This document shows, one piece after another, positions 1 through 54,717 of a stretch of DNA of 54,717 nucleotides. The first letter of the stretch is position 1. Each line of letters begins with the position of its first letter. The stretch covers positions 1 through 54,717 of the IMG/VR virus record IMGVR_UViG_3300045988_073391; one strand, 5' to 3'. The stretch comes from a virus. A model generated the notes under the pieces. It was given only the letters and a program-made list of their open reading frames with translations, was not told the origin of the DNA and ran no database searches. The position numbers and the translations under genes are program-made.

Positions 1-55
1 GTGGATAACCATTACATTATAGAAGAAAAGTCAACGCAGAAGGGATAATCATATA
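1..55. repeat. Terminal overlap copy 1 (identical to 54663-54717)
   Basis: Exact 55-nt identity read directly (gtggataaccattacatt...ataatcatata). Most simply an assembler overlap of a circular or permuted molecule. Confidence 0.95.
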
Positions 56-33373: not shown

Positions 33374-34588
33374 TTACTTGTTGAACAAGTCCATAGCCGT
33401 TTTTTTTGCTTTGTCTGCTATATCGATGTAGGGCTTCATGCTCTTGTAATCGGAGTGTCCAGTCCACTTCATCACAACGTTTGGGGCAATTCCAAGCATC
33501 AGCGCATTACAGATAAATGTACGCCTTCCGCTGTGCGTTCCGACCATCTGCCATTTTTCTTTCGTTCCCTCTATTTTTTTTCCACCTATATAATATATAT
33601 CCGTTAGCTTCTCGTTGATACCGCATTGGCGGCACGCCTCCTTGATATATACGTTCATTTTCTGATTTGAGATGACTGGTAGAGCCTTGTCTGTATCGTT
33701 GTCCGCATAACGCTGTAAGATTGTGCGAGAGTAGTTGTTAAGCTCTATTGTAATCTTGTCATTAGTCTTTTGCGTGGTTATGTGTATCGCGTCATCGTAT
33801 ATGTCTGTTTTTTTGAGCGCAGCGGCATCGGAATAGCGCAATGACGTGAAGCAGCAGAAACAGAATATATCGCGTGTGCGTGACAGGTAGGGCTGGTCGA
33901 ACTTGTGGTTATACACTTTCATCAGTTCCTCCCATGTAAGAAATACCACATTGCGGTTGGCACGCTTTAGGTGTGTTCTCTGTGCAGTAAAGGAGATGTC
34001 AGTTAATAAGCCCTTGGCCACAAGCCAGCGAAAAAACCACTTGGACATTGACAGTTTCTTTTTTGTCGTTTCATTCTGGTGGCCGAGGTCCGACTGGAAA
34101 GCTGCAAACTTGTCAAGAGTTTCTGGCTTTATTTTGTCTATACTCATCTCTGCATCGAACATTTTCCATTCTTGCAGTAGCTTCCTGTGCTTATAGACTA
34201 CACTCTTGCCCCAATGACATAATTTGCTCTGCTCGTTAATATATTCTTCGTAGAGGTCAAAGAAACCCTCCTTTTGTGCAGTTTTATTTTCACGCTTAAA
34301 CTCCTTGTCAAGCTCCGCCTTGAAGTCCTCTATTGCAGGCGACTCCTTGAATGAGTTGGCAACGGATTGTATTGTCTCCTCATACCTCTGTATCTCTGCA
34401 TTTATCTTAATTGCAGGAGTAAAGCTCTTTCCGTGAGTTGTGTTGCGCTTGCACCGCTGCATAGTCATGTCCCATTTGCTCTTGTCCACGCTAAACCCGA
34501 GCGAATAAGAGAATTTACGCTTGTTGTAAGTAATGAACACGCGGAGAGAGCCGCGCGCATCAACTGCAAAGGTGTATACGTATTTCAT
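33374..34588 (-). CDS. int: Tyrosine site-specific integrase (Bacteroidota phage/CTn type)
   Basis: 404 aa. C-terminal catalytic region THSGRRTFICNALMLGIAPNVVMKWTGHSDYKSMKPYIDI (R...HxxR...Y). Confidence 0.9.
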   Translation of the reverse strand: MKYVYTFAVDARGSLRVFITYNKRKFSYSLGFSVDKSKWDMTMQRCKRNTTHGKSFTPAIKINAEIQRYEETIQSVANSFKESPAIEDFKAELDKEFKRENKTAQKEGFFDLYEEYINEQSKLCHWGKSVVYKHRKLLQEWKMFDAEMSIDKIKPETLDKFAAFQSDLGHQNETTKKKLSMSKWFFRWLVAKGLLTDISFTAQRTHLKRANRNVVFLTWEELMKVYNHKFDQPYLSRTRDIFCFCCFTSLRYSDAAALKKTDIYDDAIHITTQKTNDKITIELNNYSRTILQRYADNDTDKALPVISNQKMNVYIKEACRQCGINEKLTDIYYIGGKKIEGTKEKWQMVGTHSGRRTFICNALMLGIAPNVVMKWTGHSDYKSMKPYIDIADKAKKTAMDLFNK

Positions 34589-34589
34589 T
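34556..34589. repeat. 34-bp direct repeat, copy 1 (covers the int start codon)
   Basis: cgcatcaactgcaaaggtgtatacgtatttcatt is identical to 35499-35532. Confidence 0.95.
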
Positions 34590-35483: not shown

Positions 35484-35531
35484 TTACAATGTACCTCTCG
35501 CATCAACTGCAAAGGTGTATACGTATTTCAT
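35484..35531 (-). pseudogene. Relic integrase 5' end (15 codons then stop)
   Basis: Encodes MKYVYTFAVDARGTL*, versus MKYVYTFAVDARGSL for int. Codons 12-13 (Arg, Gly) differ only synonymously (aga ggt vs cgc ggc). Confidence 0.6.
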
Positions 35532-35532
35532 T
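35499..35532. repeat. 34-bp direct repeat, copy 2
   Basis: Identical to 34556-34589. Confidence 0.95.
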
Positions 35533-35986: not shown

Positions 35987-36715
35987 TTAATCTCCCAGCC
36001 TTATAGAGTAAACTATTCTATACAGGCGGATAACCCTCGTCTTGGCTATATTCTGCGTTTCAAAGGAGCTATTTTCATTGATTATCCTGCATTCGTAGTA
36101 ATCTCCCCTATCATATATTCTTCGCAGAAGAAAGCCAAAGTCGTTGGTGTCTATTATCATGGAAGCACCTTGTATGATGTCAGAGCCGCGCTCCGTATGG
36201 GCAAGTGCGAGTACGTCGCCCTCCTTATATAGCGGCTTCATTGCGTCTTGCCTTACCATATAATAGAAATCAAAATTATTATAAGGAGGAATGGCGGTCA
36301 TGCTGTCAAGCTGCATTGTATGGCCGTCAGTATTTAGAATCTTGTATACGTCAGTGTTAGGCTGCGAGGTCAGGTATTTAGGAACTATTGGTTTAGAGTG
36401 ACTGTCTGTGCTTTTTTGCGCTTGTGTGTCCGCTATAATTGTATTGTTTCCCGTGTTGTTGTTGCCTACAATATTGTTGTTGCCAGTAATGTTATGTGAT
36501 GGCGCATGGCGAAACATCTCGCCCTCGCCTGTCAGAACCCATGACATATTTAGGTCGGGAAAGGCGGATTGAATTTGCAACTGGCGAGCCTTAGTTATAG
36601 ATAACGATTTACCAACAAACCCATTAGGGAGGTCTGCTTCTATCTCAAACTGTCTTATAGACTTAAATCCTTTCTTTTTAGCAAATAGCGAAAGTCTTTC
36701 ACCTATTGGTTTTAT
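35987..36715 (-). CDS. CI-like repressor (XRE HTH plus S24/LexA-like C-terminal domain) with a non-canonical start
   Basis: The frame is open to 36724. The HTH IGERLSLFAKKKGFKSIRQFEIEADLPNGFVGK lies upstream of the first canonical start (TTG 36578-36580). The only plausible initiator before it is ATA at 36713-36715. Confidence 0.6.
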   Translation of the reverse strand: MKPIGERLSLFAKKKGFKSIRQFEIEADLPNGFVGKSLSITKARQLQIQSAFPDLNMSWVLTGEGEMFRHAPSHNITGNNNIVGNNNTGNNTIIADTQAQKSTDSHSKPIVPKYLTSQPNTDVYKILNTDGHTMQLDSMTAIPPYNNFDFYYMVRQDAMKPLYKEGDVLALAHTERGSDIIQGASMIIDTNDFGFLLRRIYDRGDYYECRIINENSSFETQNIAKTRVIRLYRIVYSIRLGD

Positions 36716-36832
36716 AGTTGTATGTTATATTTATGTAATGCGTTGTTTACAAATACGTACATTACAGGTTAATAAATATTATTTTGGCGCATTTTCTTTA
36801 GCATATAGCTTTGTTTATGTAGCTATATGTTA

Positions 36833-36840
36833 TATCTTTG
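36833..36840 (+). promoter_or_regulatory. TAnnTTTG box of the early rightward operon
   Basis: TATCTTTG in the divergent region between the repressor and early genes. Confidence 0.5.
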
Positions 36841-36959: not shown

Positions 36960-37030
36960 TGGCACATTAGGTAATGGCCGCAAGGTCAGGGCTTTGCAAT
37001 AGTGCTGGGGTTCGATGCCCCGTGTGCCAC
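36960..37030 (+). ncRNA. 71-nt degenerate tRNA-like element
   Basis: Acceptor TGGCACA pairs with TGTGCCA (7 bp). T arm is TGGGG/TTCGATG/CCCCG. The D and anticodon arms are not canonical. Confidence 0.4.
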
Positions 37031-38176: not shown

Positions 38177-38251
38177 CATATACTGAGTTCTTTAAGGTTA
38201 TGGGCAATTACCCCAGTCGCGAGATTGCACGCCCTTTGTTTTTAGTGTGAC

Positions 38252-38271
38252 AGGCCGCTACTATGCGGCCT
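38252..38271 (+). other. 7-bp hairpin preceding the tRNA-like RNA
   Basis: AGGCCGC, loop tactat, GCGGCCT. Confidence 0.4.
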
Positions 38272-38276
38272 CACAA

Positions 38277-38423
38277 GCAGGTGATAGGCCGTTAATCGGA
38301 TAGACGGCAGAAGATAGTACATTGAACTCGCTACCATTATGATGCTGGATACCCCTTGGTAGCGCGTTCTTTTTTTGCGAAACGTTAGGGCATTAGCTGG
38401 TTCGACTCCAGCCACCTGCGCCA
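38277..38423 (+). ncRNA. 147-nt tRNA-like RNA with encoded CCA
   Basis: Acceptor GCAGGTG pairs with CACCTGC. T arm is GCTGG/TTCGACT/CCAGC, then G discriminator and CCA. A D-like arm GCCG/CGGC is present. About 85 nt replaces the anticodon arm. Confidence 0.5.
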
Positions 38424-38459
38424 AATAAAAGAAAGAGAAACAAAATAGAAAAATAAATC

Positions 38460-39050
38460 ATGGAAAAGAAAGAGGCAAAACCAATGACCTTTATTGAAAA
38501 GGTCGTATCTGTGCAACGAGATTTGAAAGCCCCCAAGGGACAATATAACAAGTTCGGCAAATACCGATACCGTTCTGCCGAGGATATTCTGAATTCTGTA
38601 AAACCTCTCCTTGCGAGCGTGGGCCTTGTGCTGACGCTCGAAGATGAAGTCTGCCTGATTGGCGCGCGATATTATATAAAGGCAACCGCAGTGCTGACAG
38701 ACGGCACACAAAACCTGGTAAAGAGTGCCTATGCGCGCGAGGACGAACAGCACAAGGGCAGCGATGGCGCGCAAATCACAGGCGCGGCAAGCTCATACGC
38801 ACGAAAGTACGCCCTTAACGGCCTGTTCTGCATAGACGATGCAAAGGACGCAGATGCAACAAATGACGGCACTGCACAAGCCAACAACAACCAACATGAG
38901 GAGCGCGTGCAGCTGGCAATACAAGAGGTTGACAATGCAAAGAGTAGAAAGTCACTCACGGACATTTGGAACAATTATTCTGACTTGCAGTCTGACGCAC
39001 GCTTCTCACAAGCAGTTGCAAATGCAAGTAAAAACTACCCCAAGCTATGA
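38460..39050 (+). CDS. erf: ERF-family single-strand annealing protein
   Basis: KFGKYRYRSAEDILNSVKPLLASVGLVL and QITGAASSYARKYALNGLFCIDD. Confidence 0.85.
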   Translation: MEKKEAKPMTFIEKVVSVQRDLKAPKGQYNKFGKYRYRSAEDILNSVKPLLASVGLVLTLEDEVCLIGARYYIKATAVLTDGTQNLVKSAYAREDEQHKGSDGAQITGAASSYARKYALNGLFCIDDAKDADATNDGTAQANNNQHEERVQLAIQEVDNAKSRKSLTDIWNNYSDLQSDARFSQAVANASKNYPKL

Positions 39051-45656: not shown

Positions 45657-45953
45657 ATGGAAACAAACATCGGGAAGAAAGTCATTATCCGCGGCGACCG
45701 CAGCGGAGTAGAGTTTGGAACATTGATAGCGCAAAACGGTCAAGAGGTTACACTGCACAATGCTCGTAGAATATGGTACTGGGAAGGAGCAGCATCTATT
45801 TCACAGCTCGCCGTAGATGGCACGTCTAGCCCAAGAGAATGCAAGTTTACTGTCACGGTAGAGAGTATTACCATTCTTGACGCAATAGAGATAATTCGAT
45901 GCACAGACAAAGCGATAGAATCAATAGAAGGTGTACCAGAATGGAAAAATTAG
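45657..45953 (+). CDS. Hypothetical conserved phage protein
   Basis: ATG at 45657. Contains VIIRGDRSGVEFGTLIAQNGQEVTLHNARRIWYWEGAASISQLA. Confidence 0.5.
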   Translation: METNIGKKVIIRGDRSGVEFGTLIAQNGQEVTLHNARRIWYWEGAASISQLAVDGTSSPRECKFTVTVESITILDAIEIIRCTDKAIESIEGVPEWKN

Positions 45954-46705
45954 AAACGCGCATAAAAGAATTTTTGAGCACAACCAGTGGCGATGGTTCT
46001 GGCCTTGGCTCTGGCTGTGGCTTTTTCGATAGCAGTGGCTGTGGTTATGGCGATGGCTCTGGTTATGGCTCTTTTTATGCCTCTGGCGATGGCTCTGGCC
46101 TTGGCGATGGCAAAGGCTATATACGTGGCGATGGCGATGGCTCTGGCAACGGCAAGGGCTTTGGTTCTGATGATGGCTGTGGCTATGGCTCTGGCAATGG
46201 CTTTGAGTCTCGCAGAGGCGTAAAGGAACTGAATGGAGAAAATGTCCATCTCGTAGATGGTCTTCAAACCATTATAAAATCAGTTCACGGCAACATTGCA
46301 CAATGTTTTGTCCTAAACAGCGACCTTACTTTGCAGCCTTGCTACATTGTCAAAGAACAAAATAAATTCGCTCATGGCAATACCTTGCACGATGCTTTCA
46401 CATCTCTGCAAGAGAAACTCGAGAGACTCTATGACGAGAGCACCGAGGAGGAGCGAATAGAGGCGTTTGTTGAGAAATTTCCAAACTACGACACGCCTTA
46501 TTCCAACCGCGACCTTTTCGATTATCACCACGTCCTCACTGGCTCATGTCGCATGGGTAGAGAGAGCTTTTGCAAGGATAAGGGCATAAACCTTGATGGC
46601 AGCACCACAGTCCGCGATTTCGTTTCTCTGACAAAGGATAGCTATGGGTCAGAAACTATTCGTATGCTACCGCAGGCTTATGGAGTGGACGAGATAGATG
46701 AATAG
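45941..46705 (+). CDS. Gly-rich (GDGSG/GYG) repeat protein with a globular C-terminal domain
   Basis: ATG at 45941. About 75 aa of G-x-G repeats, then VHLVDGLQTIIKSVHGNIAQCFVL...FAHGNTLHDA. Confidence 0.6.
   Translation: MEKLETRIKEFLSTTSGDGSGLGSGCGFFDSSGCGYGDGSGYGSFYASGDGSGLGDGKGYIRGDGDGSGNGKGFGSDDGCGYGSGNGFESRRGVKELNGENVHLVDGLQTIIKSVHGNIAQCFVLNSDLTLQPCYIVKEQNKFAHGNTLHDAFTSLQEKLERLYDESTEEERIEAFVEKFPNYDTPYSNRDLFDYHHVLTGSCRMGRESFCKDKGINLDGSTTVRDFVSLTKDSYGSETIRMLPQAYGVDEIDE
45987..46205 (+). repeat. Degenerate GGC-GAT-GGC-TCT-GG DNA repeats encoding the Gly-rich region
   Basis: ggcgatggctctgg occurs at 46049, 46085 and 46133, with many variants. The repeats create spurious ORFs on both strands. 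Confidence 0.8.
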
Positions 46706-52855: not shown

Positions 52856-52927
52856 CGCAGGGTAGAGCAGTGGTAGCTCGTCAGTCTGACTTACTGAAAG
52901 TCGCAAGTTCGATTCTTGCCCCTGCAA
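52856..52927 (+). tRNA. tRNA, anticodon GAC by manual fold (Val), with an initiator-like acceptor end
   Basis: Manual fold: CGCAGGG-TA-GAGC-AGTGGTA-GCTC-G-TCAGT-CTGACTT-ACTGA-AAGTC-GCAAG-TTCGATT-CTTGC-CCCTGCA-A. All four arms are canonical. C1 lies opposite A72, T is at position 37, and CCA is not encoded. Confidence 0.75.
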
Positions 52928-52939
52928 CAACTTACAACA

Positions 52940-54662: not shown

Positions 54663-54717
54663 GTGGATAACCATTACATTATAGAAGAAAAGTCAACGCA
54701 GAAGGGATAATCATATA
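54663..54717. repeat. Terminal overlap copy 2 (identical to 1-55)
   Basis: Exact identity read directly. Confidence 0.95.

Follow-up and report, generated by a model that had tools for sequence, protein, structure and literature searches.

What kind of RNA, if any, is made from the 147 nucleotides that lie directly upstream of erf in the 54,717-nt stretch of phage DNA analysed here (hereafter the window)? An earlier note on this DNA had read positions 38277-38423 as an RNA with the shape of a tRNA that is neither tRNA nor tmRNA nor intron but could be recognised by RNase P, the CCA-adding enzyme or other tRNA-binding factors. It had also named two scenarios that could overturn this description, namely an attachment core copied from a host tRNA and an ordinary terminator. 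The analysis reported here supports the note's reading, in which recognition by RNase P and the CCA-adding enzyme is a prediction. By its sequence and predicted fold, the element is a member of a distinct phage family, which we named AUAG-type.

Parts of the element

The element (plus strand, 144-147 nt, in an early operon of a temperate gut phage) has an acceptor stem of 7 bp, a D arm and a T arm without mismatches, and it ends in a discriminator base and CCA; the D and T arms are about 87 nt apart (Table 1). The acceptor strands, T arm, discriminator, CCA and T7 run described in the earlier note all match the sequence, and two further structures had to be redrawn. The inner strands of the D-like arm, GCCG (38288-38291) and CGGC (38305-38308), are complementary as described, but the stem extends to 6 bp and the loop has 9 nt rather than 13. 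Likewise, the 8-bp hairpin (CGCTACCA, 38329-38336, with TGGTAGCG, 38357-38364) and its 20-nt loop are present, but GAAC (38324-38327) and GUUC (38366-38369) add to its length. The proposed 5-bp helix between GAAGA and TCTTT is doubtful as drawn: it falls outside the RNAalifold consensus, and the partner reads TCGGT in close relatives. Still, purine-rich and pyrimidine-rich strands recur in further lineages in different registers, a similar purine-rich segment being found in lineage CGCAGGG (L308: AAGAAGAUAGUUCAU).

Table 1. Positions of the element, its parts and its surroundings in the window
Feature	Positions	Strand	Basis
Probable early rightward promoter, Bacteroides type: TTTG (36810-36813), 19 nt, TATCTTTG (36833-36840)	36810-36840	+	Read from the sequence
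Stable hairpin GGCCGC-UACUAU-GCGGCC (38253-38270) extended by UGUGA/UCACA; ends 1 nt before element +1	38246-38275	+	Fold
Acceptor stem, 5' strand GCAGGUG	38277-38283	+	Perfect complement of 38413-38419 (CACCTGC)
AUAG linker, 4 nt (tRNA: 2)	38284-38287	+	Same in 18/18 lineages, in part a product of the search patterns
D arm: 6-bp stem GCCGUU/GACGGC, 9-nt loop AAUCGGAUA	38288-38308	+	MFE fold and RNAalifold
Purine-rich segment AGAAGAUAGUACAUU 3' of the D arm, containing GAAGA	38309-38323	+	Pairing partner not conserved in register
Long hairpin in the place of the anticodon loop: GAAC-U-CGCUACCA, 20-nt loop, UGGUAGCG-C-GUUC	38324-38369	+	RNAalifold, 11 group-A variants
U7 run directly 3' of the long hairpin	38370-38376	+	T7-T8 in the closest clade only
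Long variable region GCGAAACGUUAGGGCAUUA; final 5 nt CAUUA	38377-38395	+	CAUUA in 17/18 lineages, CGUUA in 1
T arm GCUGG-UUCGACU-CCAGC, canonical T loop	38396-38412	+	4/5 stem pairs changed on both sides, 0 unpaired cells
Acceptor 3' strand CACCUGC (38413-38419), discriminator G (38420), encoded CCA (38421-38423)	38413-38423	+	Sequence
A-rich 36-nt spacer to the erf start codon at 38460	38424-38459	+	Sequence

The minimum free energy fold retains the acceptor, the D arm, the hairpin and the T arm at -48.3 kcal/mol. Because its z-score is only -2.16 (single sequence), the case rests on comparison with relatives and not on energy. The window has two places at which a T arm (TTCRA-type loop, 5-bp stem) finds a 7-bp acceptor partner, fully Watson-Crick, no more than 260 nt away, and the same pattern was found on average 0.08 times, and at most once, in 100 dinucleotide shuffles. 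The element also contains six UAG triplets in 144 nt, where 3.3 are expected (p ~0.04), an excess too weak to build on.

ARAGORN found no tRNA or tmRNA at the element, and Rfam 15 returned nothing there, the tRNA model RF00005 giving no match even at E<=10 (gathering threshold 29 bits); the note's statement that the element belongs to neither class thus holds for both programs. The Rfam tRNA model and ARAGORN also miss all other AUAG-type members. The element shares with canonical tRNA (RF00005) a 7-bp acceptor on a 5-bp T stem with a TPsiC-type loop (UUCGAnU), the GG of the D loop and a discriminator, to which the window copy adds an encoded CCA, but it differs in the 4-nt AUAG linker, the 6-bp D stem and the length of 144-147 nt. 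A 5-bp/7-nt anticodon arm with U33 is absent, no 7-nt anticodon loop lies in the ~87 nt between the D and T arms, as had been noted before, and the element has no anticodon.

An RNA in which a tRNA-like body carries a large insert instead of an anticodon arm brings a tmRNA to mind, since the tRNA-like domain of tmRNA likewise combines acceptor and T arm with such an insert and has no anticodon. The loop of the hairpin in the window copy even holds a 7-codon frame ending in UAG (AUGAUGCUGGAUACCCCUUGGUAG), which a miniature tmRNA-like RNA might offer for trans-translation. However, this frame is not kept in L086 and L089, and L086 has no in-frame stop. The pair 3:70, which is A-U in the window, is A-U, G-C, C-G or U-A in the family and never the G-U of tmRNA. 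Unlike tmRNA, the element has a D stem, is much shorter and lacks predicted pseudoknots. The frame was rejected because it is not conserved, G3-U70 is missing and neither ARAGORN nor Rfam detects a tmRNA; we consider this explanation extremely improbable.

Covariation in the AUAG-type family

The family comprises 112 matches with 74 distinct sequences in 18 acceptor-stem lineages, all from gut phage and metagenome contigs. Its members are characterised by a 7-bp acceptor, the AUAG linker, a 6-bp D stem, the D loop AAwyGGAUA, a variable module, CAUUA and a canonical T arm, and the window shows all of these features, scoring 147.5 bits with covariance model R1, for which it was one of the seed sequences. 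With R1, family members reached at least 36.8 bits and nearly all at least 48, and other phage tRNA-like sequences at most 20. AUAG, the D loop and CAUUA are nearly invariant while all stems have been rewritten, although ascertainment accounts for part of this invariance, the motifs having been a requirement of the search patterns and of the model. Throughout the family the T loop and the elbow nucleotides have been kept, and UAGGACAUUA is the most frequent form of the last 10 nt of the variable region. Ideas of a sarcin-ricin motif, a UAA/GAN motif and a D-loop/variable-loop pairing were weighed by eye; the columns involved are invariant. Literature searches on anticodon-less tRNA-like RNAs in phages did not turn up a description of the family, and a DNA search of annotated phages gave only a chance T-arm match in a Bradyrhizobium phage. 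Since neither ARAGORN nor Rfam 15 detects it, thousands of gut virome contigs probably contain the family without annotation.

The paired regions vary in a concerted manner. Of the cells in the acceptor, D and T stems, 97.7% are paired, and both sides have changed in 14 of the 16 pairs; the covariation score was 0.861 versus 0.208 in shuffles (0 of 500 reached 0.861), and slid partners gave 0.06-0.19. When seven lineages were compared, all seven acceptor pairs and four of the five T-stem pairs had changed on both sides with no broken cell, and the acceptor and T stems of 33 sequences contain no non-canonical cell. The inner four pairs of the D stem covary as well (for example, GCCG/CGGC, GCGG/CCGC, GUAG/CUAC and CGUG/CACG), and D-stem pair 16:28 is U-A, U-G or C-G in 16 of the 18 lineages and never C-A, the other two having A/C and G-U. 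For the long hairpin, RNAalifold with 11 group-A variants placed 10 of 12 pairs in the consensus, and every one of these is intact in all 11 sequences; at one pair U-A has become A-U, a compensatory change, and several one-sided substitutions leave a G-U pair. The loop core of the insert, GAUGCUGGAUAGCC, is retained in diverged variants, including those with a changed stem, and the window reads ...GGAUACCC. These comparisons show that the RNA fold predicted for the element is under selection, and the covariation of the acceptor, T and D stems strongly backs the tRNA shape that the earlier note had proposed.

The same data bear on the idea of a decaying tRNA pseudogene, or of an element acting as DNA (a recombination hot spot or an origin), without any RNA function. 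Early regions are mosaic, tRNA-like pieces could mark recombination joints, and the elements are located in recombination and replication modules. Nevertheless, compensatory changes in three helices and in the insert hairpin, together with the tolerance of G-U, point to folding of the plus-strand RNA. These strand-specific G-U pairs would be A-C mismatches on the other strand, and the preserved T-loop and elbow nucleotides also speak against decay. We regard such an origin as very improbable.

Could the element instead be an intrinsic terminator or attenuator, whose hairpin at 38324-38369 and U7 run stop part of the early transcription before erf, the tRNA likeness being incidental? The window and its closest relatives do have a 12-bp hairpin followed by U7-U8. 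However, the position of the U-run reads GGTATTC, GGTCTT or GGTTTTT in L086, L110, L118, L318 and L320, although hairpin and tRNA body are both retained there, which speaks against the terminator named in the earlier note. The 20-nt loop is atypical, a terminator scan did not call the site, and termination cannot explain the covariation of the acceptor stem, the 3' strand of which lies downstream of the U-run. A conserved terminator was rejected because the U-run is lineage-specific, and we hold this alternative to be quite improbable.

The shortest family members (75-82 nt) have, at the position of the anticodon arm, a short hairpin or 13-20 nt without a stable fold; two short lineages have a 4-nt loop there (GCGA-GAAA-UCGC and UAUGA-AGAU-UCAUA). 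As these short members have only a short hairpin at this position, we conclude that the family does not decode. They are also relevant to the possibility of a decoding tRNA gene, in which an intron-like insert is removed to give the anticodon loop. Precedent comes from the Lak megaphages of Prevotella, which carry tRNAs with 'enigmatic introns' (bioRxiv 10.1101/356790), and other odd tRNA-like sequences near erf in related phages resemble tRNA-Leu, have enlarged anticodon loops and pass the Rfam tRNA model. The AUAG-type members behave differently: the insert-free ones have a 4-nt loop or no anticodon hairpin, no simple excision yields a 7-nt loop with U33 or a canonical anticodon stem-loop, and the failure of both the Rfam tRNA model and ARAGORN extends to every one of them. 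Moreover, we know of no bacterial splicing mechanism for a 50-nt insert. Both the Lak genes and the element are over-long tRNA-like genes of gut Bacteroidota phages that bacterial tRNA finders miss, but the Lak tRNAs were reported as typed (Phe, Gly, Thr, Tyr) and carrying an insert, whereas insert-free AUAG-type members have no anticodon. A hidden decoding tRNA therefore appears to us a very remote prospect.

Other traits differ between lineages. The discriminator base is G, A, C or U across the family, and therefore no single aminoacylation identity can be proposed. The encoded CCA, which the earlier note had pointed out, is present in the window and limited to its closest clade, other members reading ACTA, ACTG, ACAG and so on. 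Tandem triplets of members occur with 10-nt spacers, and phages that are otherwise nearly identical can differ in whether they carry a member; a 76-nt member of L001, for instance, is missing from the window.

Genomic setting

Family members sit in early recombination or replication operons. The position directly upstream of erf, also remarked on in the earlier note, holds for the window but not across the family, where the flanking genes are Erf/PDDEXK, RecT/YqaJ, DUF4494/Lin1244_N, NinB or methylase genes and the gene that follows other members is RecT/YqaJ or DUF4494. Among these flanking genes we looked for a protein partner conserved as a neighbour, and none was consistently adjacent. The element in the window is intergenic, internal to the prophage and on the same strand as the flanking early recombination and replication genes, and it has no recognisable promoter of its own. 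The Bacteroides promoter consensus is TTTG-N19-21-TAnnTTTG. Because no such motif was found directly upstream of the element, we infer its co-transcription with the operon that the putative promoter at 36810-36840 would drive.

In many temperate phages, attP contains the 3' portion of a tRNA gene. A tyrosine integrase is encoded in the window (33374-34588), and an exact-sequence look-up of it gave no match. The 3' 28 nt of the element might accordingly be an att core copied from a host tRNA at which the phage integrates, the other scenario raised in the earlier note. This scenario fails on several counts. The integrase is located 3.7 kb from the element, and prophages with an identical Erf protein adjoin a host tRNA-Leu(TAG) or tRNA-Met gene by the integrase, with the element ~4 kb inside. 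Among 185,579 species-representative genomes, 46 matches to the 3' end were found, none from Bacteroidota, and only one of eight matched loci checked by ARAGORN lies in a tRNA gene, that of a candidate-phylum bacterium. The tRNA-Leu gene beside related prophages has a different 3' end, and an att core would not need the covarying 5' half. With the genome scan, the prophage junctions and the integrase position already contradicting it, the att core was ruled out, and we assign it a negligible probability.

The immediate surroundings are more informative about processing. The 45 nt upstream of the element fold at -18.3 kcal/mol (z about -4.4), and in 11 of the 16 non-internal lineages a hairpin stops 1-7 nt short of +1, its loop being unrelated in sequence from one lineage to another. 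Downstream, a same-strand ORF begins 20-45 nt 3' of the element in most lineages. These observations are those expected from purely cis-acting punctuation, in which the tRNA shape would serve only to bring RNase P and a 3' endonuclease to the early polycistronic RNA for cutting and the excised RNA would have no function; the upstream message would be capped by the hairpin at 38246-38275, and the erf-exo message would start with a short A-rich leader. The location between cistrons of one operon without an own promoter favours the same view, and plant mitochondrial t-elements provide a precedent (PMC1920247). MALAT1/mascRNA operates along these lines too. However, tandem triplets with 10-nt spacers would be redundant for cutting, and the insert hairpin and its loop are maintained by compensatory change. 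In addition, minihelices are enough for RNase P and RNase Z, and the conservation of the AUAG linker, D arm and variable region goes far beyond what these enzymes would require. On balance, we judge punctuation alone to be rather unlikely, while giving it more weight than any of the alternatives rejected above.

Possible maturation and role

The explanation that we favour, with slightly more confidence than doubt, is that the element is a real gene for a non-decoding tRNA-shaped ncRNA, which is processed and acts as a tRNA mimic; we infer this function from sequence comparison. The tRNA body is kept and the anticodon loop is replaced by a lineage-specific module, a 46-nt hairpin with flanks in the window and a short hairpin in the shortest members. 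After infection or induction, the element would be transcribed within the early operon, RNase P would cut at 38277 and leave the upstream mRNA ending in its hairpin, and tRNA 3'-processing enzymes would mature the 3' end, and CCA would be added to RNAs whose gene lacks it. Once released, the stable RNA could act in trans as a tRNA mimic, in which the tRNA body would serve maturation, stability and recognition by a tRNA-binding factor, and the variable arm would confer specificity. Most probably it would serve as a decoy or sponge that captures a tRNA-binding protein of the host or the phage, and excision would also split the erf-exonuclease message from the upstream message. The conserved D and variable region, the lineage-specific arms and the tandem arrays suggest a role in trans. 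The near-invariance of AUAG, the D loop and CAUUA, the patchy occurrence of members among very similar phages and the conserved loop of the insert likewise favour something beyond a cut site.

A search of the phage genome for an antisense target of the insert gave only 9-12-nt matches, mostly 9-mers expected by chance. This result, the z-score of -2.16, the partial ascertainment of the motifs, the varying discriminator base and the inconsistent protein neighbours count against a mimic. The upstream hairpin and the short distance to the next ORF would equally fit a purely cis-acting processing signal.

Phage tRNA genes are usually interpreted as aids to codon usage or as substitutes for tRNAs that host defences have destroyed, and a conserved family with everything of a tRNA but decoding fits neither reading. 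Tentatively, and at less than even confidence, we propose that gut phages carry a previously unrecognised class of modular non-decoding tRNA mimics, matured by the host tRNA machinery, with exchangeable arms at the anticodon position and expressed early, sometimes as tandem sets, which titrate or misdirect a host tRNA-binding factor. Candidates for that factor are a defence nuclease that targets tRNAs and an enzyme that modifies or processes them. If the proposal is true, these mimics would amount to counter-defence by RNA, or to a naturally occurring tRNA scaffold for effector RNAs. Provided that they are matured and stable, the RNAs would be candidate decoys against tRNA-directed host factors or natural scaffolds carrying effector hairpins; alternatively, they could be built-in cut sites that shape early phage messages in Bacteroidota, a phylum that departs from the E. 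coli model in how it processes RNA and initiates translation. Covariance model R1 and the motif make the family directly searchable and testable.

Several known systems resemble the AUAG-type RNAs in part. Tandem arrays, lineage-specific arms, a strongly conserved D and variable region and the bacterial or viral setting distinguish the AUAG-type RNAs from MALAT1/mascRNA, where the protective structure upstream of the cut is a triple helix, and equally from the t-elements of plant mitochondria. All three have a non-decoding tRNA-like fold within a longer transcript (t-elements: PMC1920247); cleavage by RNase P and RNase Z, which we predict for the element, would define the ends of the flanking RNAs, and a protective structure lies just 5' of the predicted cut, in our case the hairpin ending 1 nt before +1. 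Further afield, a tRNA-like chassis can provide processing and stability while an attached hairpin is the active part, as in the MHV68 TMERs and in engineered tRNA scaffolds. The hairpins of the TMERs follow the tRNA-like part and become miRNAs, whereas the AUAG-type module, for which no target was found in the phage genome, lies inside the anticodon-arm position. Finally, the stable RNAs species 1 and 2 of phage T4 (rnaC and rnaD), which are of unknown function, are co-transcribed with tRNAs and matured by tRNA enzymes. At ~140 nt they are similar in size to the element, and they belong to the tRNA cluster of a lytic coliphage.

The AUAG-type family and its conserved fold

Re-reading the window sequence confirmed, with their positions, all features that the earlier note had listed for the 147-nt tRNA-like gene directly upstream of erf. 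The window contains two T arms that find a perfectly matching 7-bp acceptor strand no more than 260 nt away, against a shuffle mean of 0.08. When the element is folded by itself, its acceptor stem and hairpin form along with the D and T arms, but the z-score is only -2.16. ARAGORN called no tRNA or tmRNA at the element; its only calls in the window were a 71-nt 'tRNA-???' and a tRNA-Val (Table). Rfam 15 gave no match at the element at gathering scores, and none at E<=10 in a 1.8-kb search.

The exact 3' 28-mer of the element was found in three IMG/VR contigs. The D-arm pattern ATAGGNNNNTAANNGGATAGA brought up further members with very different acceptor stems, and a gapped pattern added 41 loci on metagenome contigs. 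The covariance model R1, built on seven lineages, scored family members at 36.8-152 bits (nearly all >=48) and all other tRNA-likes of related phages at <=20 bits. Run over 0.93 Mb from other gut-phage loci, it produced one weak match (28.5 bits). The 112 matches represent 74 distinct sequences with 18 acceptor stems. The element falls into a distinct phage family, which we call AUAG-type. Its members have in common a 7-bp acceptor stem, the AUAG linker, a six-pair D stem (four of the pairs covarying) that closes the D loop AAwyGGAUA, a middle part that varies, and CAUUA (often UAGGACAUUA) ahead of the T stem with its canonical T loop, although part of this motif conservation is imposed by the search patterns and R1 themselves. 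Sixteen of the 18 lineages have U-A, U-G or C-G at D-stem pair 16:28, and C-A never occurs there; the T stem reaches 6 bp in one lineage.

Selection maintains the RNA fold of the element, which has a tRNA body and lacks an anticodon. Across the seven aligned lineages, standard pairing holds in 97.7% of cells, and 14 of the 16 pairs show changes in both partners. The covariation score was 0.861, as compared with 0.208 after shuffling (0/500 reached 0.861) and 0.06-0.19 with slid partners. No non-canonical cell occurs in the acceptor and T stems of 33 sequences. For the window's own lineage, RNAalifold retained the acceptor, a 6-bp D stem, the long hairpin (4+6 consensus pairs) and the T arm; among the 11 variants no pair is broken, one has switched from U-A to A-U by compensatory change, and several one-sided substitutions leave a G-U pair. 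The GAAGA/UCUUU helix, previously proposed at the anticodon-stem position, is absent from this consensus, but a purine-rich strand 3' of the D arm and a pyrimidine-rich strand 5' of the variable region recur at that place in other lineages (GGAAAA/UUUUUC, AAAGA/UCUU, UAUGA/UCAUA). This recurrence makes an anticodon-stem equivalent in the family plausible but unproven.

AUAG-type members do not decode. The shortest, at 75-82 nt, are cloverleaf-sized; where the anticodon arm should be, they carry either a short hairpin, in two cases with a 4-nt loop (Table), or 13-20 nt without a stable fold. At that position the longer members, the window copy among them, have lineage-specific structured inserts, and no excision creates a 7-nt loop with U33. 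G, A, C and U all occur as the discriminator base. An encoded CCA is not conserved across the family, and it is absent from the phage tRNA-Val and the host tRNA-Leu. The Rfam tRNA model misses every AUAG-type member, yet matches other odd tRNA-likes of the same phages.

A full-text literature search found no description of an anticodon-less tRNA-like family of this type, nor does Rfam 15 include a model of one. The closest phage precedent is the over-long tRNAs with 'enigmatic introns' in Lak megaphages (bioRxiv 10.1101/356790); tRNA-like candidates, not further specified, are also mentioned in a large survey of structured RNAs from viruses (PMC10690425). We rate the family as belonging among viral tRNA mimics, already known as a kind.

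Genomic setting, integration and termination

The exact 55-nt direct repeat at its ends identifies the window as a complete, circularly assembled genome of ~54.66 kb. The phage is temperate, and its host was assigned to Bacteroidota from the promoter type, integrase domains and flanking host genes; some G+C-rich metagenomic lineages of the family may have other hosts. The promoter motif was typed by the Bacteroides consensus.

Coordinates of features in the window and on related phage or metagenome contigs (L handles)
Feature	Contig	Position	Strand	Remark
Terminal repeat	window	1-55 = 54663-54717
Structural genes	window	up to ~30 kb	+
Tyrosine integrase	window	33374-34588	-
39-nt repeat	window	34551-34589, 35494-35532	-	95% identical; at integrase gene start and upstream of KilA-N gene
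KilA-N protein gene	window			regulatory/early region, between integrase and repressor
S24 CI-like repressor	window	35987-36580	-
Promoter motif, Bacteroides-type	window	36810-36840		TTTG, 19 nt, TATCTTTG; upstream of early operon
Second tRNA-like, 71 nt	window	36960-37030	+	early operon start
Upstream hairpin	window	38246-38275		ends 1 nt 5' of +1
Element	window	38277-38423	+	147 nt including CCA
GAAGA/UCUUU helix	window	38310-38314/38368-38372
Erf	window	38460-39050		rightward early operon: WYL_2 protein, small ORFs, Erf, PD-(D/E)XK exonuclease
12-nt-period repeat	window	45981-46226		13 overlapping copies, GGCxxTGGCTxT-like; in ORF 45899-46705
tRNA-Val(GAC)	window	52856-52928	+	canonical; ARAGORN; Rfam 59.5 bits; among late or accessory genes
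4-nt-loop member	L008	2893-2968		UAUGA-AGAU-UCAUA
4-nt-loop member	L303	1746-1827		GCGA-GAAA-UCGC
CTA tRNA, 95 nt	L008	2390-2485		ARAGORN 'tRNA-Pyl'
Odd tRNA-likes	L012	395-530, 1515-1623, 2278-2407, 2495-2595
Odd tRNA-likes	L014	351-424, 2030-2103
GGTTCGTGAGAATAG hairpins	L211	2010-2024, 2222-2236, 2411-2425
Host tRNA-Leu(TAG)	L289	5841-5923
Host tRNA-Leu(TAG)	L290	4367-4449
Host tRNA-Leu(TAG)	L293	5842-5924
Host tRNA-Met	L296	5715-5789

The earlier note had considered that the 3' end might be an att core copied from a host tRNA. We searched the T loop plus acceptor 3' strand in 185,579 species, one genome each, and obtained 46 matches, none of them in Bacteroidota; in only one of eight matching loci examined with ARAGORN did the pattern lie within a tRNA gene. 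The window's exact Erf protein is also found on metagenome contigs with integrated prophages, whose integrase end adjoins a host tRNA-Leu(TAG) gene beside GH95 and M20 peptidase genes (L289, L290, L293) or a tRNA-Met gene (L296). A near-identical copy of the element lies ~4 kb inside these four prophages. The 3' end of the host tRNA-Leu has no relation to the element and does not occur in the window; what the window has next to its integrase gene is similar to the prophage flank of the junction. The genome scan, the junctions elsewhere and the dissimilar tRNA-Leu 3' end therefore refute the att core; the element sits inside the prophage, as part of the early operon. The two kinds of junction also place close relatives with identical Erf at different integration sites, and integrase modules are swapped among them.

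The note had likewise considered that the hairpin and T7 run might be an ordinary terminator. A U7-U8 run 3' of the long hairpin is limited to the closest clade. Six relatives (L086, L089, L110, L118, L318, L320) keep the hairpin and the entire tRNA body with GGUAUUC, GGUCUU or GGUUUUU at the U-run site, which argues against termination as the conserved function, while some attenuation may occur within the window's own lineage.

A putative role as a non-decoding tRNA mimic

Family members always lie on the strand of the flanking genes, within early recombination or replication modules: directly upstream of Erf/PD-(D/E)XK (window, L007, L008), ~0.9 kb upstream of a RecT/YqaJ pair (L110, L115) or just after one (L308), or upstream of DUF4494/Lin1244_N (L087, L317). 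In most lineages the downstream ORF begins 20-45 nt past the member. A comparison of flanking genes found no constant protein neighbour, and no antisense target of the insert was found in the phage genome. Leaving out array-internal members, a stable hairpin ends 1-7 nt 5' of +1 in 11 of 16 lineages, with loops unrelated in sequence between lineages. In L086, L110, L111, L115 and L318, the upstream hairpin, ~20 nt before the member, is GCUCG-GAAAGA-CGAGC, recalling the lambdoid boxB (GCCCU-GAAAA-AGGGC) in size and purine-rich loop.

RNase P would cut at 38277, leaving an upstream message that ends in the hairpin; tRNA 3'-end enzymes would finish the 3' end, and the released RNA would presumably be stable. 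Such processing could by analogy serve cis-only punctuation, the main rival explanation, for which MALAT1/mascRNA is one precedent. Plant mitochondrial t-elements are the other (PMC1920247). We favour a non-decoding tRNA mimic that would either engage a tRNA-binding factor, as its decoy or sponge, or carry an effector arm on a tRNA scaffold. A function in trans, over and above marking the cut site, is suggested because every stem is rewritten around unchanging AUAG, D-loop and CAUUA motifs, because the insert keeps its hairpin and loop, because tandem arrays occur in several phages (two members, or three with 10-nt spacers), and because near-identical phages differ in which members they have gained or lost, as they do for accessory genes. 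The trans role and cis punctuation are not exclusive.

Other tRNA-like elements and repeats

The second, likewise non-canonical tRNA-like element of the window has the acceptor UGGCACA/UGUGCCA and a perfect T arm; ARAGORN assigns it an anticodon of four bases, cagg. L001-L006, L290, L291, L293 and L294 conserve this element, and R1 does not match it. The erf-bearing relatives L012-L040 carry arrays of up to ~7 other odd tRNA-likes ~0.4-2.6 kb upstream of erf (examples in the Table). Some resemble tRNA-Leu with 'anticodon loops' of 19-27 nt, some have a 4-nt loop (UUCU or UUCC) and are canonical elsewhere, and one has a second T arm nested in its insert; the Rfam tRNA model accepts several of them by skipping the anticodon region.

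A hairpin with the conserved loop GGTTCGTGAGAATAG (inner UUC-GUGA-GAA) and variable stems, unmatched in Rfam 15, occurs on at least 120 IMG/VR contigs (L169-L288, with L211 as an example in the Table), including phages of 100-370 kb. A T-run often follows it, terminator-like, and a tRNA or tRNA-like gene lies directly 3' in 26 of 116 distinct contexts.

Within the window, the 12-nt-period repeat probably encodes a Gly-rich repeat protein, and the 39-nt direct repeat may stem from duplication of a 5' gene end or mark a recombination joint. In L008, a tRNA with the amber-suppressor anticodon CTA shares an array with two AUAG-type members just upstream of erf, and its anticodon hints at stop-codon recoding in that relative.
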